From NCBI GenBank assembly GCA_026391805.1, contig JAPLDJ010000024.1, forward strand, positions 170,014 through 234,013: a DNA stretch of 64,000 bases, written 5' to 3'. The notes beneath the pieces were generated by a model. It did no database searches. It saw only the letters and a program-made list of their open reading frames with translations, and was not told the DNA's origin. Made by a program: the position numbers and the translations under genes. This DNA comes from Bacteroidota bacterium. GTDB lineage: Bacteria > Bacteroidota > Bacteroidia > Bacteroidales > FEN-979. Shown in pieces: positions 8,409 through 31,593 of the stretch (the stretch's first letter is position 1; the number at the start of each line of letters is the position of its first letter).

Positions 8409-8548
8409 AGAAAATCGTACTGAAGAAGACTAGTTGATATTTATGCGCAAAATTAGACAATCTCCCGCATTTAAAAAAGAAAATCAATGCAGGATGCCAA
8501 AAGGCTTTGATTCTGCCGGTATTAATAGGATATTGGGATTTTTTTTAT

Positions 8549-8556
8549 ATTTTTGC
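8549..8556 (+). promoter_or_regulatory. Candidate Bacteroidota -7 promoter box (TATTTTTG) upstream of iorA
   Basis: Matches the TAnnTTTG consensus 28 nt upstream of the iorA ATG. No properly spaced -33 TTTG was seen. Confidence 0.3.
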
Positions 8557-8583: not shown

Positions 8584-10197
8584 ATGCAAAGACTATTACT
8601 CTTGGGGGATGAAGCCATCGCACAGGGAGCGCTTGATGCCGGGCTGTCGGGTATCTATGCATATCCCGGCACACCTTCCACTGAAATAACCGAATTTGTC
8701 CAGCACTCCAAACAGGCATTCCATGATAACGTGCATTGTACCTGGTCGGCAAATGAGAAGACCGCAATGGAATCAGCACTGGGTATGTCGTATGCAGGAA
8801 AACGTGCAATGGTATGCATGAAACATGTGGGACTGAATGTTGCGGCCGATCCTTTTATCAATTCTGCGATAACAGGTGCAAATGGCGGCCTTATGATCGT
8901 GGCGGCCGATGATCCGTCGATGCATTCCTCACAAAATGAGCAGGATTCAAGGTTCTTTGGGAAGTTTGCCATGATACCGATCCTGGAGCCCGCCAACCAG
9001 CAGGAAGCTTACGATATGGCCTACGTTGGATTTGACTTCTCCGAGCGGTTCAAGATTCCTGTAATGTTGCGTCTTACCACCCGCCTGGCCCATTCACGCG
9101 CAGGGGTGGTGCGGAAGCCCGTAAGGAAAATGAACGAAGGGAATTTTCCCGAAGACCTCCGCCAGTTTGTTCTGCTGCCCGCCATTGCCCGGAAGAGGTA
9201 CAGGAACCTTCTGAAATTACAAGACCTTTTTGATCAGGAATCTGAAATTTCCTCTTTTAACAAATACATTGATGGGCCCGACAAGAGCCTTGGCATCATC
9301 GTATGCGGCCTTGCCTATAATTATCTCCTGGAAAATTACCAGGACCGAATTGTTCCTTACCCGGTACTGAAGATCGGGCAATACCCGTTACCGAAGAAAC
9401 TGATCGGGAAGCTGATGGATGAATGCCGGGAGATCCTGGTTCTTGAAGATGGTTATCCCGTCGTGGAGGAATCGCTGAAAGGATTGCTGGGCAGGGGCGT
9501 AACGATAAAAGGCCGGCTCGATGGTACGGTTCCCCGCGATGGTGAACTGAACCCGAACATCGTGGCCGTTGCACTGGGGATGGAAGACACCTTCGGGTTG
9601 CCGGTTCCGTCGCTGATGGTCAACCGACCGCCGTCACTGTGTTCCGGTTGCCCGCACATCGATTCATTCAAGGCCCTGAACGAAGTGCTTGCCGACCTCC
9701 CGAAAGGAAGGGTCTTTTCGGATATCGGTTGTTATACCCTGGGCGCTCTTAAGCCGTATGAGGCGATCAATTCATGCGTGGATATGGGCGCCTCGATCAC
9801 AATGGCAAAAGGAGCTGCTGATGCAGGATTAATACCGTCTGTCGCGGTAATCGGCGACTCTACCTTCACCCATTCCGGCATGACAGGCCTGCTGGATGCC
9901 GTCAATGATAAATCACATGTTACTGTTTTTATTCTTGATAACGGAACGACAGCCATGACCGGCGGACAGGAATCCCCTGCCTTCGGAAGGATCGAGAGCA
10001 TCTGCAAAGGCCTGGGGGTGGAGGAAGGCCATATCCATGTGCTCAAACCGCTGAAAAAGTACCACGAGGAGAATGTGAGGATCATCAACGAAGAACTTGC
10101 CTACCCCGGTGTTTCCGTCATCATCCCGCGAAGGGAATGCATCGTTGCCGTTGATAAGCGTATCAGAGATAAGTTCAAGACAAAACAGAATGCCTGA
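8584..10197 (+). CDS. iorA: Indolepyruvate:ferredoxin oxidoreductase, alpha (TPP-binding) subunit
   Basis: 537-aa ORF. The N-terminus (LLLGDEAIAQGALDAGLSGIYAYPGTPSTEI), the CxGCPH motif (LCSGCPHIDSF) and the TPP-binding region (GDSTFTHSGMTGL) are typical of IorA. Confidence 0.85.
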   Translation: MQRLLLLGDEAIAQGALDAGLSGIYAYPGTPSTEITEFVQHSKQAFHDNVHCTWSANEKTAMESALGMSYAGKRAMVCMKHVGLNVAADPFINSAITGANGGLMIVAADDPSMHSSQNEQDSRFFGKFAMIPILEPANQQEAYDMAYVGFDFSERFKIPVMLRLTTRLAHSRAGVVRKPVRKMNEGNFPEDLRQFVLLPAIARKRYRNLLKLQDLFDQESEISSFNKYIDGPDKSLGIIVCGLAYNYLLENYQDRIVPYPVLKIGQYPLPKKLIGKLMDECREILVLEDGYPVVEESLKGLLGRGVTIKGRLDGTVPRDGELNPNIVAVALGMEDTFGLPVPSLMVNRPPSLCSGCPHIDSFKALNEVLADLPKGRVFSDIGCYTLGALKPYEAINSCVDMGASITMAKGAADAGLIPSVAVIGDSTFTHSGMTGLLDAVNDKSHVTVFILDNGTTAMTGGQESPAFGRIESICKGLGVEEGHIHVLKPLKKYHEENVRIINEELAYPGVSVIIPRRECIVAVDKRIRDKFKTKQNA

Positions 10198-10253
10198 CCC
10201 GAAAATGTTCCGGGCAAGGGCGGGAATGTGATCATATAAATAAGGATTATTAT

Positions 10254-10841
10254 ATGAAAAGAGACATTATTCTGGCCGGGGTTGGTGGCCAGGGAATTCT
10301 TTCAATCGCTGCCATCATCGGTTATGCAGCGCTGGAACAGGGACTGTTCCTGAAACAGTCAGAAGTTCACGGCATGAGCCAGCGGGGTGGTGACGTGCAG
10401 TCAAACCTCAGGATCTCGGATAAAGGGATCGCTTCAGACCTGATCCCTTTCGGAAAGGCCGACCTCATCATTGCCGTGGAGCCACTGGAAGCATTGCGTT
10501 ACCTCCCTTATCTTTCTCATGACGGATGGGTGATTACGAGCATACGTCCTTTTTTAAATATTCCGGAATATCCTGATATGGAAAAAGTGATGGAAGAGGT
10601 CCGGAAGTTGCCGCATTATGTGGCCCTTGACGCAGATGAGATTGCAAAAGAGGTGGCAACCGCCAAAGCCGCCAACATCGTGATCCTTGGAGCTGCTTCT
10701 CCGTTCCTGGATATGAATTACGAAAAGCTCGAAGATGCCATCCGCTTCACATTCCGCAAAAAAGGGGATGAAGTGATCGCGAAAAACCTCGAGGCTCTGA
10801 AAGCCGGCAGAAAATTCGCAGACGATCACATGAATTCATAA
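10254..10841 (+). CDS. iorB: Indolepyruvate:ferredoxin oxidoreductase, beta subunit
   Basis: 195-aa ORF with the 2-oxoacid:ferredoxin oxidoreductase gamma-like motif (ILAGVGGQGILSIA...GMSQRGG). It lies directly after iorA. Confidence 0.8.
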   Translation: MKRDIILAGVGGQGILSIAAIIGYAALEQGLFLKQSEVHGMSQRGGDVQSNLRISDKGIASDLIPFGKADLIIAVEPLEALRYLPYLSHDGWVITSIRPFLNIPEYPDMEKVMEEVRKLPHYVALDADEIAKEVATAKAANIVILGAASPFLDMNYEKLEDAIRFTFRKKGDEVIAKNLEALKAGRKFADDHMNS

Positions 10842-10898
10842 ATTTAATTTTTTTAATACCTTTACAGTTTGGCACTATTTCATAAAGAACGATAAAAT

Positions 10899-12086
10899 AT
10901 GAGGTTTTTACAACGAAAGACAGCACATTATACTGAGCCGCAGAAAGTTGAGAGGCTTGGCCTTTATCCGTTTTTCAGGGTCATAGAATCCGACCAGGAT
11001 ACCACGGTGACAATCCGCGGAAAAAAAGTGCTGATGTTCGGATCAAACAGCTATATGGGGCTGACGAATCATCCCAAGGTCAAGGAAGCTTCTATCAAGG
11101 CAATCGAAAAGTATGGCAGCGGCTGTGCCGGATCACGTTTTCTGAATGGCACACTTGATATTCATATAGAGCTGGAAAATAAACTGGCAGAGTATGTAAA
11201 AAAGGATGCCTCACTGGTATTCAGCACCGGGTTCCAGGTCAACATCGGCGTCATTCCTACGGTTACCGGCAGAAATGACTATCTCCTTATCGACGAGCTC
11301 GACCACGCCTCCATCATTGAAGCAACACGCCTCTCATTTGCAAAAGTTCTTAAGTTCCGTCACAACGACATGCACTCCCTGGAGCGGCTGCTGAAGAAAT
11401 GCGAACCGAACCGGATCAAGTTGATTGTCATCGACGGGATCTACAGCATGGAAGGGGATATTGCCAACCTGCCGGGAATTGTCAAACTGGCCAATAAATA
11501 TGATGCCACGGTCATGGTGGATGATGCTCATTCCATCGGAGTGATCGGGGAACACGGCTCCGGAACTGCTTCGCATTTCGGCCTCACCGACCAGGTTGAC
11601 CTGATCATGGGAACCTTCAGTAAATCCCTCGCAGCCCTTGGCGGTTTTATCGCAAGCGATTTTGATACGATCAATTACATCAAGCATCATTCGCGTTCGC
11701 TGATATTCAGCGCCAGTATCACTCCGGCTTCCGCGGCAGCTGTCCTTGCCGCCATCGAGATCATCAAATCAGAACCTGAACGGATGAAACACCTGTGGGA
11801 TATTACGCACTATGCCCTCGATAATTTCAAGCGGCTGGGTTTTGATATCGGTAAATCCGAAACTCCCATCATACCTCTTTATATCAGGGATAACCTGAAG
11901 ACCCTGAAGCTTACCAGGATGCTGCTCGACGAAGGGGTCTTTGTGAACCCCGTCGTTTCCCCCGCCGTCAGCAAAGACTCTACGCTGATCCGGTTCTCTT
12001 TGATGGCAACTCATACCAAAGACCAGGTGGATATCGCTCTCGACAAGTTTGAGAAGCTGGGGAAAAAGCTTGACATCATTCATTGA
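10899..12086 (+). CDS. PLP-dependent alpha-oxoamine synthase, serine-palmitoyltransferase-like (Spt / AONS / Kbl family)
   Basis: 395-aa ORF with family motifs: FGSNSYMGL, KYGSGCAGSRFLNGT, DHASI, SMEGD, VDDAHS, and the PLP lysine in GTFSKSL. The overall pattern closely resembles Bacteroidota Spt as I remember it. Confidence 0.8.
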   Translation: MRFLQRKTAHYTEPQKVERLGLYPFFRVIESDQDTTVTIRGKKVLMFGSNSYMGLTNHPKVKEASIKAIEKYGSGCAGSRFLNGTLDIHIELENKLAEYVKKDASLVFSTGFQVNIGVIPTVTGRNDYLLIDELDHASIIEATRLSFAKVLKFRHNDMHSLERLLKKCEPNRIKLIVIDGIYSMEGDIANLPGIVKLANKYDATVMVDDAHSIGVIGEHGSGTASHFGLTDQVDLIMGTFSKSLAALGGFIASDFDTINYIKHHSRSLIFSASITPASAAAVLAAIEIIKSEPERMKHLWDITHYALDNFKRLGFDIGKSETPIIPLYIRDNLKTLKLTRMLLDEGVFVNPVVSPAVSKDSTLIRFSLMATHTKDQVDIALDKFEKLGKKLDIIH

Positions 12087-12103
12087 TAAAAATAACGGGA
12101 GCT

Positions 12104-13231
12104 ATGGAAATCTCGATCAAAAAGGTCACCACCGGGAAGGACCTTCGGAAATTTATTGACTTTCCTTACCGGCTCTACAAAGAGAATAAGTACTGGTGTC
12201 CGCCCATGCGCATGGATGAGCGCAATACCCTGTCACGCAAAAAGAACCCGGCCTTTGACTTCTGCGAAGCAGAATATTTCCTGGCATACAAGGATAGCAA
12301 ACTTGTCGGCAGGATCGCCGGGATCATCAACCACAAGGCCAATGAACGCTGGAATGAGAAGCTGGTCAGGTTCGGATGGATCGATTTTATTGATGAGCCA
12401 GCCGTTTCTGAGAAACTGATCGCCACCGTGACCCAGTGGGGAAAAGAAAAAGGGATGAACGGCATTCACGGCCCCCTCGGTTTTTCCGACATGGACAATG
12501 AAGGGATGCTGATCAAGGGATTTGAAGAGGAAGCCACCCTGGCTTCGATATACAACTATCCTTATTACGTGGAACACATGGAACGCCTCGGATTCAAAAA
12601 GGCGGCCGATTGGGTGCAGTATGAATTTGAAGTTCCCCAGGAGATTCCTGATAAGGTTGAACGGCTTTCAGCGCTGGTCAAAGAAAAATACAAGCTCCGG
12701 CTGGTTGAGGCAAAAAAAGCGAAGGACCTTCTTCCCTATGCAGGTAAAATGTTTGTCATGCTGAACCAGGCATTCGATGAGCTCTATGGCTTTACGTCGC
12801 TCAGCCAAAAGCAGATGGACATGTACGTGAAGACCTATTTTGGGTTTATCCGGCCCCAATATGTCTCTTTTGTGGTCGATGAACATGATGATATCGTCGG
12901 CTTCGGGGTTTCGATGCCATCCCTGACAAAAGCGCTGCAGAAGAGCAATGGGCGCCTGTTTCCGTTCGGCTTCATTTACATGCTTCGGGCGATGAAGAAA
13001 AATGACACCATCGATATGTACCTGAATGGTGTCAGGCCCGATTATCATGGCAAAGGTGTGAATGCACTTTATTATAACGAGATGCATAAAGCTTACATCC
13101 GGAACCACATTACACGGGCGGTCACGAACCCGCAGCTGGAAGACAACGCCAAAGCCCTGACGATCTGGAAGAATTTTAACGGTCGTCAGCATCTCACCAG
13201 GCGATGCTGGATCATGCATTTCGAAGAATAA
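12104..13231 (+). CDS. GNAT-fold acyltransferase-like protein, paralog A (candidate N-acyltransferase / bacterial ceramide-synthase-like)
   Basis: I moved the start to the ATG at 12104 (MEISIKKVTT...), which matches paralog B (MEIEIRKVTT...). A GNAT motif-A-like segment is present (LNGVRPDYHGKGVNALYY). By eye it is roughly 60% identical to 14267..15388. Confidence 0.7.
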   Translation: MEISIKKVTTGKDLRKFIDFPYRLYKENKYWCPPMRMDERNTLSRKKNPAFDFCEAEYFLAYKDSKLVGRIAGIINHKANERWNEKLVRFGWIDFIDEPAVSEKLIATVTQWGKEKGMNGIHGPLGFSDMDNEGMLIKGFEEEATLASIYNYPYYVEHMERLGFKKAADWVQYEFEVPQEIPDKVERLSALVKEKYKLRLVEAKKAKDLLPYAGKMFVMLNQAFDELYGFTSLSQKQMDMYVKTYFGFIRPQYVSFVVDEHDDIVGFGVSMPSLTKALQKSNGRLFPFGFIYMLRAMKKNDTIDMYLNGVRPDYHGKGVNALYYNEMHKAYIRNHITRAVTNPQLEDNAKALTIWKNFNGRQHLTRRCWIMHFEE

Positions 13232-13262
13232 TATTTTCCTGTTTCACAAGCCGACCTTATCT

Positions 13263-14267
13263 ATGGATAATGTATTGATCACCGGCGCCAGCGGATTCAT
13301 CGGAAGTTTCCTTACCGAGGAAGGCCTTAAGCGGGATTACCGGGTTTATGCCGGCATACGCCGTTCCAGTTCGAAGGAATACCTTAAGGATGAGCGGATC
13401 CGGTTTATTGAGATGGATTTTTCATCCGTTGAAAAAATCGCTGATACACTTGAAGACTGTAAAAAACAGGGGATCACTTTCCGGTACATCATCCATAATG
13501 CAGGACTTACAAAGGCCCGGAAGAAGGACGACTACCAGCGTGTGAACTTCGTAAATACCAGGAATTTCATTGAAGCCCTGATAAAAACGGGGACAGTTCC
13601 TGAAAAATTCATCTTTGTCAGCAGCCTGGCTGCTTTCGGACCGGGGAACCCGGAAACCATGGCGCCGGTGCTATTGTCGGATACCCCGAATCCCATTGAA
13701 CTTTACGGAAAAAGCAAGCTGGAAGCAGAAAAGTACCTCAATTCGCTGGAATCATTTCCATGGCTGATCTTTCGCCCGACCGGTGTCTATGGCCCGAGGG
13801 AAAAAGATTATTATATTTTCTTCAAAACGATCAACCGCGGACTGGAAACCTACATCGGTTCCAAACCCCAGATCCTTACCTTCATTTATGTCAGGGATCT
13901 GGTCAGGCTGATCTTTGATGCCCTGCCTTCTTCCATCGTAAGAAAAGGGTATTTCGTTTCGGATGGAAGGGAATATGATACGCAGACATTTGCCGCCATA
14001 ACCAAAGAAGTCCTCGGAAAGAAAACAATACGGATAACCGTTCCGGCAGGACTTGTCAAACAACTGGCTGCAGGACTTGAGAGCCTATACAGCTGCTGGG
14101 GAGGCATACCAACCCTCAACAGGGATAAGTACAATGTTCTGGCAAGCAGCAACTGGCGTTGCGAAGTTGAACCCCTTCAGCGTGATTTTGGATTCAATGC
14201 TGAATACGACCTGGAGAAAGGTGTCAGGGAAACCATCGCCTGGTATAAAAAAGAACACTGGCTCTGA
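13263..14267 (+). CDS. NAD(P)-dependent epimerase/dehydratase-family (extended SDR) reductase
   Basis: 334-aa ORF with a Rossmann motif (ITGASGFIGSFL) and the YxxxK catalytic pair (YGKSKLEAE). Confidence 0.8.
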   Translation: MDNVLITGASGFIGSFLTEEGLKRDYRVYAGIRRSSSKEYLKDERIRFIEMDFSSVEKIADTLEDCKKQGITFRYIIHNAGLTKARKKDDYQRVNFVNTRNFIEALIKTGTVPEKFIFVSSLAAFGPGNPETMAPVLLSDTPNPIELYGKSKLEAEKYLNSLESFPWLIFRPTGVYGPREKDYYIFFKTINRGLETYIGSKPQILTFIYVRDLVRLIFDALPSSIVRKGYFVSDGREYDTQTFAAITKEVLGKKTIRITVPAGLVKQLAAGLESLYSCWGGIPTLNRDKYNVLASSNWRCEVEPLQRDFGFNAEYDLEKGVRETIAWYKKEHWL

Positions 14268-15388
14268 TGGAGATAGAGATCCGAAAGGTCACAACCCGAA
14301 AAGAGCTGAAGAGATTCATCCTTTTTCAACTCGGCCTTTATAAAGGAAACCCTTTCTGGTGCCCTCCCCTTATTTTTGATGAACTGAACACTCTCCGGAA
14401 GGACAAGAATCCTGCATTTGAATATTGTGAAGCCGAATACTGGATGGCATACCGGGAAGGCCTTCCTGTGGGGAGGATTGCCGGTATCATCAATCACAAG
14501 GCCAACCAGCGATGGAATGAAAACCTGGTGCGGTTCGGATGGATCGACTTTATTGATGACCCTGCGGTTTCTGCAAAACTGATCGAAACTGTGGCGGAGT
14601 GGGGCAGGGGCAAAGGAATGACCGGCATCCAGGGGCCACTTGGCTTTACCGACATGGACCCGGAAGGAATGCTGATCGAAGGGTTTGAGGAGATGTCGAG
14701 CATGGCCGCCATTTACAATTATCAATATTACCCGGAACACATGGTAAACATGGGTTTCGGGAAAGGCGCCGATTGGGTTCAGTACGACATGGAGGTGCCT
14801 GATGTGATTCCGGAAAAAGTTTCCCGTTCCGCAGAGATTGTCATGGAAAAATACAAGCTCCGGAAGCTGGCGGCAAAGAAATCAAAGGATATAAGGCCTT
14901 ATGCCAGGAAAACGTTCACGATGCTCAATGAAGCTTTTAATGACCTCTATGGCTTTGCCGCCCTCAGTGAAAAGCAGATTGACCTGTTCATCAAACAATA
15001 CTTTGGCTTCATCCGGCCCGAGTTTGTATCGCTTGTACTTGATGACAAGGATGATGTCATCGCTTTCGGCATCACCCTCCCGGAACTCACGACTGCCTTG
15101 CAGAAATGCAACGGAAGGATTTTCCCATTCGGCTTCCTGCATCTTTTAAGGGCCCTGAAAAAAAATGACACCATCCACATGTACCTCATCGGCGTTCGTC
15201 CCGACCACCAGAACAAGGGAGCCCTTGCGCTGGTTTATTATAGCCTGCACAAGTCCTACCTGGAACATGGAATAACAAGGGCTACCACGCATCCCCAGCT
15301 GGAGGACAACCTGAAAGCCATCTCCATCTGGAAAAATTATAATTCACGTGTGTACATCCGGCGTCGTTGCTGGGTGAAGCATTTTTAG
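14267..15388 (+). CDS. GNAT-fold acyltransferase-like protein, paralog B
   Basis: 373-aa ORF. Its start overlaps the stop of the reductase gene (TGATG). It aligns along its full length with 12104..13231, sharing NPAFEYCEAEYW, GRIAGIINHKAN, LVRFGWIDFIDD, GPLGFTDMD and GVRPDHQNKG. Confidence 0.7.
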   Translation: MEIEIRKVTTRKELKRFILFQLGLYKGNPFWCPPLIFDELNTLRKDKNPAFEYCEAEYWMAYREGLPVGRIAGIINHKANQRWNENLVRFGWIDFIDDPAVSAKLIETVAEWGRGKGMTGIQGPLGFTDMDPEGMLIEGFEEMSSMAAIYNYQYYPEHMVNMGFGKGADWVQYDMEVPDVIPEKVSRSAEIVMEKYKLRKLAAKKSKDIRPYARKTFTMLNEAFNDLYGFAALSEKQIDLFIKQYFGFIRPEFVSLVLDDKDDVIAFGITLPELTTALQKCNGRIFPFGFLHLLRALKKNDTIHMYLIGVRPDHQNKGALALVYYSLHKSYLEHGITRATTHPQLEDNLKAISIWKNYNSRVYIRRRCWVKHF

Positions 15389-15457
15389 GGATGTGGGATA
15401 TGAGATGTGAGATGTGAGATGTGAAATGTGAAATGTGAGATCTGAGATCTGAGATGA
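15389..15457. repeat. Drifting 7-bp tandem repeat, about 10 units
   Basis: The units read gggatgt gggatat gagatgt x3 gaaatgt x2 gagatct x2 gagatga. They begin right after the stop codon at 15386-15388, in a convergent intergenic spacer. Confidence 0.9.
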
Positions 15458-15468
15458 GTGTCTGGTAC

Positions 15469-15503
15469 AAAAAAAGCCGCCCCATTCCGGGAGCGGCTTT
15501 TTC
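15469..15503. terminator. Bidirectional rho-independent terminator
   Basis: The sequence aaaaaaGCCGCcCC-attcc-GGgaGCGGCttttt forms a GC-rich stem flanked by an A-run and a T-run. It sits between two convergent genes. Confidence 0.7.
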
Positions 15504-27526: not shown

Positions 27527-28738
27527 TCATCTCCCGATTTTTTGATAAAAACCAAGGAGTTTCGAAATGATAGAATCCCGGTTGTACTCCTCCAGGATGA
27601 GTTTCCGTGCGTTCCGACCCACCGATTCACAAAGCTTTTTATCTTCAACACACGCAGAAATGGAGCGGATGAACGCTTCCGTGTCATCCGCAATAAAAAT
27701 GTCCTTTCCGTGGGAACAGCGGATCCCTTCCGCCCCGATGGCGGTGGAAACGATGGTTTTCCCGGCGGCCATCCCCTCGATGATCTTGATCCGGATCCCG
27801 CTTCCTGAAAAAAGCGGCACAACCAGGATGGCCTTCGTCCGCATGAAGGCGAGCGCGTCGTCCACTTCACCGGCCACTTCAACCCCGGGGTATCCTTTCT
27901 CCTTCAGCCACTGCGGCATATGGCGCCCGGCGAGGGTGTACCGCAACAAAGGAAACCTGGAATGAAGCTCAGGCCAGACCTTCTCCAGGAACCAGCAGAT
28001 CCCTTCGAGGTTGGGGATCCAGTCCATCGCGCCGATCGAGAAGAGGGAAGGGAATTCAGGCTCTTCCTTTGTTTCCGGAAAACATTCAGGATCAATTCCG
28101 AAAGGGATCGAGATGACAGGCGGATGATCTTTTTCCATCCCTGCAAGCGAACGGAAGAACGTTGCATCTTTTTCTGTAATGGCGGCAATGCCGTCAAAAT
28201 TCCGTACTACGGAACATTCATAATTTTTCAACGTCCTTACAAGATGGCGCAGGTAAATGCGTTTCAACGGATTTTTTGTGGTATCGGCAATTCTCTTCCA
28301 GATCAGGTGTTCGATGTTATGGGTGCGCAGGACAATTTTTGCGGCGGAGTATTTCCTGACAACATCAAGGTAAGGACTCATGAAAAGCATTTCGAATTGC
28401 ACCACATCGAATTTTTCCGACTGCAGGATCCGGATCAGCGCCTGTTCCATGTCACCGGAGATGAATCGTTCCACATGGTAGGATCGGCTGGAGAAGAGGT
28501 TCAGGAACGCTCCGAGGGGTTTTATGCTGAGATCGACATCGACCAGTTCGATCCCTGTTTTTTTCCTGTATTCTGAGGGGATAGAATCAATATCAACCTT
28601 GTATTTATTCGAATTTATGGCGAGCACTTTAACGGTATGCCCCGCCCGGATCAGCCCTTCCAGGATCATGTTCATGGCGATCGGCCCGCCTTCCCTTGCC
28701 GGAAACGGTGATTTGTTGCAAAGGAGAAGGATCTTCAT
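27527..28738 (-). CDS. Glycosyltransferase, GT4/GT1-like
   Basis: I placed the start at the ATG at 28738 (MKILLLCNKSPFPAREGGP...). This ATG forms an ATGA overlap with the stop of the upstream permease gene. The C-terminus reads SGSGIRIKIIEGMAAGKTIVST. Confidence 0.8.
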   Translation of the reverse strand: MKILLLCNKSPFPAREGGPIAMNMILEGLIRAGHTVKVLAINSNKYKVDIDSIPSEYRKKTGIELVDVDLSIKPLGAFLNLFSSRSYHVERFISGDMEQALIRILQSEKFDVVQFEMLFMSPYLDVVRKYSAAKIVLRTHNIEHLIWKRIADTTKNPLKRIYLRHLVRTLKNYECSVVRNFDGIAAITEKDATFFRSLAGMEKDHPPVISIPFGIDPECFPETKEEPEFPSLFSIGAMDWIPNLEGICWFLEKVWPELHSRFPLLRYTLAGRHMPQWLKEKGYPGVEVAGEVDDALAFMRTKAILVVPLFSGSGIRIKIIEGMAAGKTIVSTAIGAEGIRCSHGKDIFIADDTEAFIRSISACVEDKKLCESVGRNARKLILEEYNRDSIISKLLGFYQKIGR

Positions 28739-30174
28739 ACGCGTTTTTTTCGTGCAAATGACCTCAGGTTCGTGATGATCTTGATCCATGCATCCACATC
28801 CAGCAGCGATGCATCCACTGTAGCCTTGTAAGTAAGAAAGATCCCGATCGGCAGAAGCACGGCAGGAGCGATCCACATTCCCTGCATGGCGGTGAGCACC
28901 CCTTCCACAGCATATTTTTCACCGGAAATGGATAGGATCCAGAATAATATAAAGAAGATGGTTGAAATAACTGCCGGAAGACCCAGGCCTCCTTTCCGGA
29001 TGATCGCCCCAAGCGGGGCGCCGATGAAAAAGAGGAGAAAACAGGCGATCGAAAAGGTGTATTTTTTATGAATGGCGATCTGGTGCTTATGAAGCAGTTT
29101 CTCCTTTTCGTAGAAATTTTCCTCGTTGGCTTTCAGATTTTCATTGACTGCATACGATGCATTTTTCGCTGAATTAAGGATCCATTCACGGTCTTTGCGC
29201 GCAAATGTGGCCATGAGGCTTTTTATCGGCTTTCCTTTCGGAACAGTCAGGAGATCCTTTTTAATGGTGTCGATGGTAGAAAGAAAATAATAATTGCGCA
29301 TGAAGGCTTTTGAGAAATCCATCTGCTGCCCGATGGTCTCTTTCCGGATTGAATCAACCGCCCTGCTCAGCTGGCTGATGTTCAGCATCTCGAAATTGCT
29401 TTTAAACAGCTTTTCATCCGTGCGTGTCAGTTGGAATGTAGAAAGGTCAAACTGCTGGTATTGCTCATTGAATTTTGTCCGCTGGAAAGGATGGGTGACA
29501 CCACTGCCCCTGAGGTCGGTACGTTCTTCATAGTTCATGCCATTGTAAAGCCGGAAAATCAGGAACCGTTTATCGGGCGTCAGCTCCATCTTTCCCCACT
29601 CGGCCATGGTCAGGGAGATGTTTCCCTGGTGTTTTGAATGATCGTAGATCATCACATCCCGGATGGTATTGCCATCGGGATCCTTTTTCCCCACCCGGAT
29701 CACATACCCGTCGATACCATTATAAAAGACACCTTCCTTGATGTTGAAGGCAAGTTTTTTCGAACGGACATCATAGAGCAACGAAAGAAATTTCAGGTTG
29801 GCTGTTGGCAGTACCACATTGGCAAAGTAAAAGCCCAGCAGGCTGATCAGGATGGAGACGATCACCAGCTGTTTCATGATCCGCCTCAGTGATATCCCTG
29901 CCGACTTCATGGCGACCAGCTCGTAATGTTCACCCATGTTCCCGAACATCATCAGCGACGAAAGCAGGATGGCAAGGGGAAGTGCATAGGGCACAAACGT
30001 GGAGGAGGCATAAAACAAGAGCTTTGCAATGATGAACCACTCCAGTCCTTTCCCCACCAGGTCATCAATGTATTTCCAGAGGAACTGCATTAAAAGGATG
30101 AACAGGGCGATGAAAAAGGTCATGACCAGGGGGCCGAGGTAAGACTTCAGGATGAACCAATCGAGCTTTTTCAT
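28735..30174 (-). CDS. LptF/LptG-family (YjgP/YjgQ) permease
   Basis: 479-aa ORF. The N-terminus (MKKLDWFILKSYLGPLVMTFFIALFILLMQFLW) and six-TM layout with a large periplasmic loop are typical of LptF/G. Confidence 0.8.
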   Translation of the reverse strand: MKKLDWFILKSYLGPLVMTFFIALFILLMQFLWKYIDDLVGKGLEWFIIAKLLFYASSTFVPYALPLAILLSSLMMFGNMGEHYELVAMKSAGISLRRIMKQLVIVSILISLLGFYFANVVLPTANLKFLSLLYDVRSKKLAFNIKEGVFYNGIDGYVIRVGKKDPDGNTIRDVMIYDHSKHQGNISLTMAEWGKMELTPDKRFLIFRLYNGMNYEERTDLRGSGVTHPFQRTKFNEQYQQFDLSTFQLTRTDEKLFKSNFEMLNISQLSRAVDSIRKETIGQQMDFSKAFMRNYYFLSTIDTIKKDLLTVPKGKPIKSLMATFARKDREWILNSAKNASYAVNENLKANEENFYEKEKLLHKHQIAIHKKYTFSIACFLLFFIGAPLGAIIRKGGLGLPAVISTIFFILFWILSISGEKYAVEGVLTAMQGMWIAPAVLLPIGIFLTYKATVDASLLDVDAWIKIITNLRSFARKKRV

Positions 30175-30396: not shown

Positions 30397-31593
30397 ATGA
30401 CCATAATCGAAGTCAACAATAAGAAAACCATCCGGGAATTCCTGGAGGTGCCGGCCATTATTTATAAAAATGATCCATACTGGGTCCGGCCCCTCGACCA
30501 CGAGGTCGAATCGATCTTTGACCAGAAGATCAACAGTTTCTTCACGCATGGCGAAGCGATACGGTGGGTAATGAAGGATGACAACGGCGCACTGACCGGG
30601 AGGGTAGCTGCTTTCATCAATAAAAACAAGGCGTTTACGTTCCCGCAGCCAACTGGTGGGATGGGTTTTTTTGAATGCACCGATAACCGGGACGCCGCCT
30701 TTCTGCTTTTTGACACCTGCCGCAACTGGCTGGAGGCGCGTGGCATGCAGGCCATGGATGGCCCGGTCAATTTCGGAGAGAACGATGTCAACTGGGGCCT
30801 GCTGGTGGACGGATTCATCCACCCCGGACTTGGGATGAATTACAACCCGCCCTATTATCGTGAGTTTTTTGAATCGTATGGGTTCAAATTCTATTTCGAG
30901 CAGGTCTCCAACCACCTGGACCTGACCAAACCATTTCCGGAACGGTTCTGGAAGATTGCAGAGTGGGTCCGGAACAAGCCGGAAAACAAGTTTCTTCATT
31001 TCACCTATAAAGAGACTGCAAAATTCATTCAAGATCTGAAAGAAATCTATGATGATGCCTGGGCTTTTCATGAAAGCTTTACCCCGCTGGAGGAAAAGCT
31101 TCTCATGAACACGTTGAAGAAGTCCCGCCCCTTCCTGGATGAAGAAATGATCTGGTTTGCCTATCACAACGGTGAGCCCGCCGCATTCCTGATCATGTTC
31201 CCCGACGTAAACCAGATCCTGAAACACCTGAATGGGAAACTGCACCTCTGGAACCAGCTCAAATTTCTTTACCTGAAAAAGAAAAAAACCATAACACGTG
31301 CCCGCATTGTCATCATGGGCGTAAAACCCAAATTCCAGCGTCACGGGCTCGAATCCGGGATCTTCTGGCACCTGAATGAAAAGATGAAGAAAAAGCCCCA
31401 ATTTACCGAACTTGAACTTTCCTGGGTGGGCGATTTTAACCCGAAGATGAGGGCTCTCCACGAAAGTGTGGGAGCCGTTTTTGGCAAACGCCACATTACT
31501 TACCGGAAATTATTTTCAGGAGAGATACCGGAGCAGCGTTCGACGATCATTCCGGTTGATACCAAGGAAAAAGCATTGCGGAATAAGCAATAA
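30397..31593 (+). CDS. GNAT-fold acyltransferase-like protein, distant paralog C of 12104..13231 and 14267..15388
   Basis: 398-aa ORF with the same architecture as paralogs A and B. It has an N-terminal F..VP...Y..DP.W..P block, a central GM.A.DGP.NF block, NYNPPYY, and a C-terminal GNAT motif-A-like GVKPKFQRHGLESGIFW. Confidence 0.65.
   Translation: MTIIEVNNKKTIREFLEVPAIIYKNDPYWVRPLDHEVESIFDQKINSFFTHGEAIRWVMKDDNGALTGRVAAFINKNKAFTFPQPTGGMGFFECTDNRDAAFLLFDTCRNWLEARGMQAMDGPVNFGENDVNWGLLVDGFIHPGLGMNYNPPYYREFFESYGFKFYFEQVSNHLDLTKPFPERFWKIAEWVRNKPENKFLHFTYKETAKFIQDLKEIYDDAWAFHESFTPLEEKLLMNTLKKSRPFLDEEMIWFAYHNGEPAAFLIMFPDVNQILKHLNGKLHLWNQLKFLYLKKKKTITRARIVIMGVKPKFQRHGLESGIFWHLNEKMKKKPQFTELELSWVGDFNPKMRALHESVGAVFGKRHITYRKLFSGEIPEQRSTIIPVDTKEKALRNKQ

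Follow-up and report, generated by a model that had tools for sequence, protein, structure and literature searches.

Gene content and layout of the locus

We report the analysis of a compact run of genes from an uncultured Bacteroidota bacterium of the order Bacteroidales (assembly GCA_026391805.1; a 3.89-Mb genome, 98% complete), four of which, spt, GNAT1, cerR and GNAT2, probably form an operon for the synthesis of (dihydro)ceramide. The window, by which we mean the whole 64,000-nucleotide stretch of DNA that was analysed, is C21:170014-234013 (contig JAPLDJ010000024.1), and positions without a contig or locus name are those of the window. Six open reading frames (ORFs) lie on the + strand in the order iorA, iorB, spt, GNAT1, SDR (short-chain dehydrogenase/reductase, of the CerR type) and GNAT2, at intergenic distances of 56, 57, 17, 31 and -1 nt. 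A first-pass annotation of this DNA had described six co-directional genes with tiny gaps or overlaps, among them a 57-nt spacing between iorB and spt and a TGATG overlap of the SDR and GNAT2 genes; all six were found at the coordinates that it gave, the 57 nt were read from the sequence, and the overlapping SDR stop and GNAT2 start lie at 14265-14269. Through their sphingolipids, gut and oral Bacteroidota influence the immunity and lipid metabolism of the host, and the bacterial enzymes of ceramide synthesis were identified only in 2021-2023. We know of no structure of a bacterial ceramide synthase (bCerS) and of no rules for its specificity.

The lipid genes begin with spt (10899-12086, 395 aa), a predicted serine palmitoyltransferase, which is followed by GNAT1 (12104-13231, 375 aa), the canonical copy of a putative bCerS-type ceramide synthase, by a cerR-type extended SDR (13263-14267, 334 aa) and by GNAT2 (14267-15388, 373 aa), a second and derived paralog of the putative synthase. 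The ORF of GNAT1 opens at a TTG at 12083; the ATG at 12104, 17 nt past the spt stop, is nevertheless the likely start, because the alignments with GNAT2 and with all orthologs begin there. The identical six-gene order is shared by two relatives, a genome of the same genus (G122) and a metagenomic one (L192), and a genome of the sister genus (G242) carries iorAB-spt-GNAT1-cerR with GNAT2 missing, a recurrence which argues that the arrangement is not due to chance. In a relative whose GNAT2 is 68% identical to that of the window, the entire neighbourhood stands in unchanged order.

Relationship to known enzymes of ceramide synthesis

The first-pass annotation had held that the synthase of the locus closely resembles the Spt of the Bacteroidota. 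This is supported by NF047600 (SerpalmtaseCFB), the NCBI equivalog model for the Bacteroidota enzyme, which matches with 680.6 bits against a cut-off of 640, whereas the protein scores below the respective cut-offs of the BioF, Kbl, HemA and proteobacterial Spt models. The translation holds the pyridoxal phosphate-lysine motif GTFSKS (IMGTFSKSLAALGG). The protein is 38% identical to the Spt of Escherichia coli BL21 (E = 3e-88), which in turn finds the operon Spt as its best match when searched against the genome, and it is the sole Spt-type alpha-oxoamine synthase (AONS) of that genome, the three other AONS genes scoring as Kbl- or BioF-like. Compared with the Spt proteins of the other gene triads described below, its identity is 57-84%. 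L-serine, rather than cysteate, glycine or alanine, is the presumed substrate of the enzyme, a reading to which the equivalog score and the lack of a cysteate synthase above cut-off lend indirect support.

The SDR carries both of the motifs that had been noted as marks of an NAD-dependent epimerase-family reductase, GASGFIGS at residues 8-15 and YGKSK at 148-152, and is matched by the Pfam Epimerase profile (1.5e-27). It is 24% identical over 327 aa to the E. coli protein Epi (E = 3e-28); a search of the genome with Epi returns the operon SDR first (1e-23, the next match being at 6e-14), so that the two are reciprocal best hits. The best relative in the PDB, a UDP-glucose 4-epimerase, matches at only 3.9e-13. 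With the Rossmann motif starting at residue 8 there is no room for a cleavable signal peptide, nor is there any in E. coli Epi; the CerR of Caulobacter is reported to be periplasmic, a location that the window SDR may or may not share. We propose that the acylated base is the substrate of the SDR, which would reduce its 3-keto group.

Over 373 residues the two GNAT-like proteins share 64% identity, close to the figure of about 60% that had been estimated by eye, and the GNAT segment predicted at the C-terminus is seen as a weak match to Pfam PF00583 in the last third of the protein. Beyond this weak match the NCBIfam and Pfam profiles offer no curated family for either of them. E. coli YghO aligns with GNAT1 at 27% identity over 354 aa (E = 3e-42) and with GNAT2 at 29% over 316 aa (E = 5e-42), and these alignments are near full-length, spanning 316-354 of about 375 residues. 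The family is very large and centred on the Bacteroidales, at least 7,997 of 8,000 scored candidates being significant. When the PDB was searched with the sequence of GNAT2, only noise was obtained, and no bCerS structure is present in that database. An AlphaFold2 model of GNAT2 (pLDDT 88.4, pTM 0.85) predicts a tandem GNAT fold which matches the structures 2wpw, 5kf1, 7q3a and 1ozp with E values of 1e-10 to 1e-14. The nearest folds are those of a clavulanate-pathway tandem GNAT, a glucosamine N-acetyltransferase, MAB_4324 and the mycothiol synthase MshD, with TM-scores of about 0.5-0.6 at about 12% identity. Our proposal is that GNAT1 N-acylates 3-ketodihydrosphingosine (3-KDS) as a bCerS-type synthase.

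In Caulobacter crescentus ceramide is made by Spt (CCNA_01220), bCerS and CerR, three enzyme families that are shared with the window. The NA1000 names CCNA_01212 (bCerS) and CCNA_01222 (CerR) presumably designate the same genes as CC_1154 and CC_1164, respectively, in CB15. The cluster yghO-aasR-epi-acpR-spt of E. coli BL21(DE3) (ECD_02850-02854) consists of counterparts of these and further Caulobacter genes, with yghO (aca, ECD_02850) corresponding to CC_1154, aasR to CC_1165, epi (ECD_02852) to CC_1164, acpR to CC_1163 and spt (ECD_02854) to CC_1162 (PMC9386255); what YghO and Epi do in E. coli is likewise a prediction. We fetched this region from an annotated E. coli collection and compared its proteins directly with those of the window. 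The assignment of the window genes to the Spt, bCerS and CerR classes, made beforehand from the sequence, was borne out, the E. coli counterparts matching at 3e-88, about 1e-42 and 3e-28. Like the window locus the E. coli cluster is compact but, unlike it, includes aasR and acpR, has yghO in divergent orientation and a single synthase, and stands beside lptF/lptG paralogs; E. coli K-12 lacks the cluster. Caulobacter differs in that the locus analysed here has no dedicated acyl carrier protein (ACP) or acyl-ACP synthetase beside spt and has two copies of the synthase, and the identity between the two systems, measured via the E. coli counterparts, is only 24-38%. The order of the steps, acylation of 3-KDS and then reduction, is nonetheless likely to be shared. 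For Caulobacter this order is backed by the build-up of oxidised ceramide in a cerR mutant and by the localisation of the enzymes (PMC11087976). As a separate observation, a fatty acyl-AMP ligase with 30% identity to E. coli AasR (E = 2e-58) is encoded on the same contig (C21:46191-47753), 133 kb upstream of spt and not linked to the operon.

A closer point of reference is Bacteroides fragilis, in which CerS (BF9343_4218) and CerR (BF9343_4240) were found via their homology to the Caulobacter enzymes, and where a cerS mutant accumulates 3-KDS and a cerR mutant keto-dihydroceramide (bioRxiv 10.1101/2023.05.23.541633). The comparison was made via congeners, B. fragilis itself not being among the best 80 loci of our genome scan. 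In each of five named Bacteroides genomes exactly one protein is matched by YghO (E 9e-35 to 4e-39), a member of the A clade, which is a subfamily of the tree described below, and exactly one homolog is found with the window SDR, at 42-44% identity. The single family member of B. pyogenes (G252) likewise belongs to the A clade and is 82-93% identical across named Bacteroides species, including B. thetaiotaomicron, B. xylanisolvens, B. ovatus and B. salyersiae. This single Bacteroides protein is about 47% identical to GNAT1 and GNAT2, and has in common with GNAT1 a signature of D304, KGVNAL and NPxLE. The genes for CerS and CerR are 24 kb apart in B. salyersiae, a spacing that fits the 22-locus-tag distance from BF9343_4218 to BF9343_4240, and 45-134 kb apart in the four other Bacteroides. 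The three genes are therefore dispersed in Bacteroides (CerS and CerR by 24-134 kb, with spt elsewhere), whereas in the window they are contiguous and the synthase is doubled. These comparisons indicate strongly, though indirectly, that GNAT1, GNAT2 and the SDR are probably orthologous to the knockout-validated pair of B. fragilis.

To place the locus in a wider context, we surveyed 301 Bacteroidales genomes, for which 100 loci were fetched with their flanks and annotated mechanically. The GNAT family is present in 254 of the 301 genomes, Spt is above its cut-off in 87 (with divergent Spt-like genes in 8 more) and a CerR-type SDR occurs in 71; 67 of these 71 have Spt as well (odds ratio 121, p = 5e-39). 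In 12 Bacteroidales families (f1, f10, f52, f57, f74, f75, f77, f82, f89, f96, f97 and f145) Spt, GNAT and CerR stand together on one strand as a compact triad, and in one genome (G088) an ORF of 706 aa (L070:6272-8392, on G088:C15) directly downstream of spt combines GNAT and CerR in a fused protein. According to a published remark, sphingolipid-producing Bacteroidota do not have the three genes close together (PMC11334938). Because at least 12 families, most of them uncultured, do cluster the genes, this statement needs to be qualified as one that holds for cultured genera such as Bacteroides and Parabacteroides; genome G130, which falls in the unclustered sub-clade, is a Parabacteroides.

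Homology, orthology, synteny, gene fusion, co-occurrence and selection are all observed for the locus, and we consider it probable, at roughly 85%, that spt-GNAT1-cerR-GNAT2 (10899-15388) is a (dihydro)ceramide operon of the known bacterial route. The first-pass annotation had likewise read the genes as the full sequence of condensation, N-acylation and reduction in one operon, and the homology to the E. coli enzymes, the orthology with Bacteroides, the conserved synteny, the fused gene and the co-occurrence of Spt and CerR all speak for it. According to this reading the four genes would be transcribed together. Spt would form 3-KDS by condensing L-serine and a long-chain acyl thioester, a bCerS-type tandem GNAT, with GNAT1 as the canonical copy, would N-acylate the 3-KDS from acyl-CoA or acyl-ACP, and the CerR-type extended SDR would reduce the 3-keto group to yield dihydroceramide; we infer this order of steps from the Caulobacter and B. 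fragilis mutants. As the pathway is the known one, the locus adds little to it conceptually. What is new is the clustering of the genes and the presence of a diverged extra synthase.

Duplication of the putative synthase and competing explanations

A tree of 113 sequences (IQ-TREE, LG+G4, quick search, SH-aLRT support) divides the family into deep subfamilies, which pair with different reductase repertoires. Subfamily D, in which YghO groups (support 91), has all of its Bacteroidales members between spt and cerR. Subfamily A (89 rows, support 99), to which GNAT1 and GNAT2 belong, also takes in the proteins of Bacteroides and Parabacteroides and the majority of the copies that lie beside Spt or CerR. 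Within it lies a sub-clade of 14 rows (support 100), almost all of them from genomes negative for both Spt and CerR, and the proteins of the sub-clade presumably act on another substrate; the 14 loci include L066, L072, L077, L078, L086 and L089. Subfamily B (18 rows, support 99) includes a third paralog of the present genome, on contig C6, and apart from that copy is confined to Spt-positive, CerR-negative genomes. The survey holds 28 Spt-positive genomes without a CerR-type SDR (for example G276, G018, G040, G061 and G265), which have only B-type acyltransferases. Such genomes suggest a second flavour of the pathway with a different reductase, perhaps a classical-SDR KDSR as for B. thetaiotaomicron BT_0972.

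GNAT1 and GNAT2, whose relationship had been put forward for phylogenetic study in the first-pass annotation, fall with their orthologs into sister clades (support 99 each, joined at 94). The GNAT1 clade has rows from the present genome, G122 and G242, and the GNAT2 clade from the present genome and G122; with the 119 closest database proteins, clade membership comes to 26 for GNAT1 and 98 for GNAT2, from which it follows that the duplicate is old and widely kept in the lineage. The duplication is thus lineage-specific but old. Both copies are under purifying selection, with dN/dS, measured against the same-genus ortholog, at about 0.09 where dS is estimable, a value which is only indicative since dS is saturated for 4 of the 6 genes. 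The two clades are fixed for different residues at 15 sites, GNAT1 being derived at 5 and GNAT2 at 6. At three of the positions that differ between the paralogs, D304, N320 (in KGVNAL) and N342 (in NPxLE), GNAT1 agrees with Bacteroides and Parabacteroides, whereas GNAT2 has H304, L320 and H342, substitutions that are conserved across some 98 metagenomic orthologs. All three lie in the C-terminal GNAT domain, and in known tandem GNATs catalysis usually takes place in the C-terminal domain. Duplication of the synthase beside spt has happened repeatedly, as independent tandem duplicates of bCerS, mostly next to spt, are found in f75 (L019/L020), f121 (L047/L054), f96 (L015) and f2 (L050). The GNAT1/GNAT2 pair is a convenient natural experiment on what sets N-acyl specificity.

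The role of GNAT2 admits two explanations. The paralogs may differ in specificity, as the first-pass annotation had supposed and as the substitutions in the catalytic domain would be consistent with; GNAT2 would then most likely make a second ceramide species from a different acyl donor or long-chain base. More specifically, and tentatively, GNAT2 could be a neofunctionalised ceramide synthase in which H304, L320 and H342 change the acyl donor or long-chain base accepted, a change of donor being, for example, one between 3-hydroxy and non-hydroxy chains or one of chain length. If so, the lineage makes two distinct ceramide classes from one operon and provides a natural matched pair for mapping the specificity determinants of bCerS. 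On the other hand, the same D304H, N320L and N342H changes in the catalytic GNAT domain, the faster evolution of GNAT2 (dN against the same-genus ortholog 0.23, compared with 0.17 for GNAT1) and the lack of GNAT2 in the sister genus might indicate that GNAT2 took over another step after the duplication, such as O-acylation of the 3-hydroxy acyl chain of ceramide or N-acylation of an unrelated amine, and that only GNAT1 makes ceramide. We regard this as rather unlikely, since GNAT2 keeps 32 of 32 family-conserved positions (GNAT1 keeps 31, the exception being K371M) and its predicted fold is unchanged, and it is still placed in the spt operon, overlapping the cerR stop, across 98 orthologs; moreover, at least four other families acquired tandem duplicates beside spt on their own, which points to one activity having been diversified several times.

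Two further explanations concern the locus as a whole. The capnine route to sulfonolipids employs CapA as cysteate synthase, CapB or SulA as cysteate acyltransferase and CapC as reductase, and shares its logic with the window, an AONS acting first and reduction by an NAD(P)H-dependent enzyme and N-acylation coming after it. The locus could accordingly be read as one for a sulfonolipid of the capnine or sulfobacin type, its AONS condensing cysteate, its SDR acting as a dehydrocapnine reductase and its GNATs N-acylating capnine, and it does hold the matching classes of AONS, NAD(P)-dependent reductase and N-acyltransferase. Relatives of these proteins may serve other amino-lipid routes: in two Spt-negative genomes a non-Spt AONS, 36-37% identical to Spt, adjoins an A-type GNAT (L059:5000-7426, on G267:C14, and L084:3698-6132, on G083:C6), and this pair could belong to a different amino-lipid route, for example one of the sulfonolipid type. 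For the window, however, this alternative, which the earlier annotation had also entertained, is very improbable. Its AONS is above the Spt equivalog cut-off and as close to the Spt of other triads as stated above, its SDR and GNATs are orthologous to the Bacteroides CerR and CerS, and no cysteate synthase is above cut-off in the 98%-complete genome, where the best match to TIGR03844 reaches 58 bits against a cut-off of 324.9, which is moderate evidence as the model is mainly archaeal.

The other explanation extends the unit upstream, to iorA (8584-10197, + strand, 537 aa) and iorB (10254-10841, + strand, 195 aa), the predicted alpha and beta subunits of indolepyruvate:ferredoxin oxidoreductase. 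The former scores 530 bits with TIGR03336 (IOR_alpha), under the cut-off of 650.9, and is matched by POR_N and TPP_enzyme_C; the latter scores 303 bits with NF005324, above the cut-off of 222. It had been suggested, as a speculation, that IorAB feeds the pathway, and the two sets of genes might indeed be one unit in which 2-oxoacids are converted to unusual acyl-CoA primers or donors for the sphingolipid. The genes share a strand and are separated by 57 nt with no convincing terminator, the iorAB-spt order is kept in G122, G242 and L192, and the only exact Bacteroidetes-type -7 promoter box of the region lies upstream of iorA (TATTTTTG, 8548-8555, + strand). This box, a putative promoter element, is the sole exact intergenic TAnnTTTG on the + strand between 8300 and 15500, and stands at an equal offset before iorA in the window, G122, G242 and L192. 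The order is restricted to this lineage, however, with iorAB next to spt in 0 of the other 24 spt-containing panel loci. The iorB-spt spacer of the relatives contains an exact TAnnTTTG (TACCTTTG in L192 and TACATTTG in G242) and that of the window a degenerate version with 7 of the 8 positions (TACCTTTA, 10857-10864, + strand) that might serve the lipid operon as an internal promoter, from which we take it that the lipid genes probably have a promoter of their own. The known products of IorAB, furthermore, are arylacetyl-CoAs and not fatty-acid primers. A supply of primers by IorAB is hence improbable, though less so than the sulfonolipid reading; because iorAB is single-copy in the genome, it is probably housekeeping and a neighbour outside the lipid pathway, with read-through from iorAB into the lipid operon being possible.

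Against the assignment of the four genes to ceramide synthesis there are several points to be set. The pathway is predicted for this organism from its genes, the link to the knockout genes of B. fragilis runs through congeners and gene spacing, and the tree comes from a quick search in which branch support is limited to SH-aLRT values. Many Spt-negative genomes have A-clade relatives, for which reason membership of the family is by itself no proof of a role in sphingolipid synthesis. YghO, moreover, is as distant from the C6 paralog as from the operon copies, and the clade of that paralog provides the sole candidate for a synthase where a genome has Spt but no CerR; any of the three copies may thus carry the main flux.

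Transcription signals, flanking genes and distant paralogs

Consensus scans of the locus for sigma-70 promoters and for terminators performed no better than on shuffled sequence, and the promoter search described above rests instead on the Bacteroidetes TAnnTTTG box. Downstream of GNAT2 a hairpin between A- and T-runs (AAAAAAAGCCGCCCCATTCCGGGAGCGGCTTTTT) was read from the sequence at 15469-15502, and is likely to be a bidirectional terminator common to the operon and to a convergent susD-like gene; the terminator scan gave a terminator-like match on the - strand here. Between the GNAT2 stop and the hairpin, at about 15400-15456, there are some 8 heptamers of the forms GTGAGAT, GTGAAAT and CTGAGAT. 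The locus is flanked upstream, on the opposite strand, by genes for a TonB-dependent receptor and a DeoC-family aldolase, and downstream by a convergent SusD/SusC pair.

The third, B-type paralog (in locus L005, C6:1414-4864) is 32% identical to GNAT2. Its gene follows those of a sulfotransferase (PF13469) and a radical SAM protein on the same strand, neighbours which are not conserved at the other B-type loci that were fetched. A fourth paralog, encoded within the window at 30397-31593, is far more distant (24% identical) and served as the outgroup of the tree. The genes for an LptF/LptG-family permease (28735-30174) and for a GT4 glycosyltransferase (27527-28876) are divergent to it in transcription. 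The spt cluster of E. coli BL21 likewise abuts lptF/lptG paralogs, a resemblance in setting that may be a coincidence, and according to the title of a 2026 preprint sphingolipid transport in Caulobacter requires LptFG homologues.

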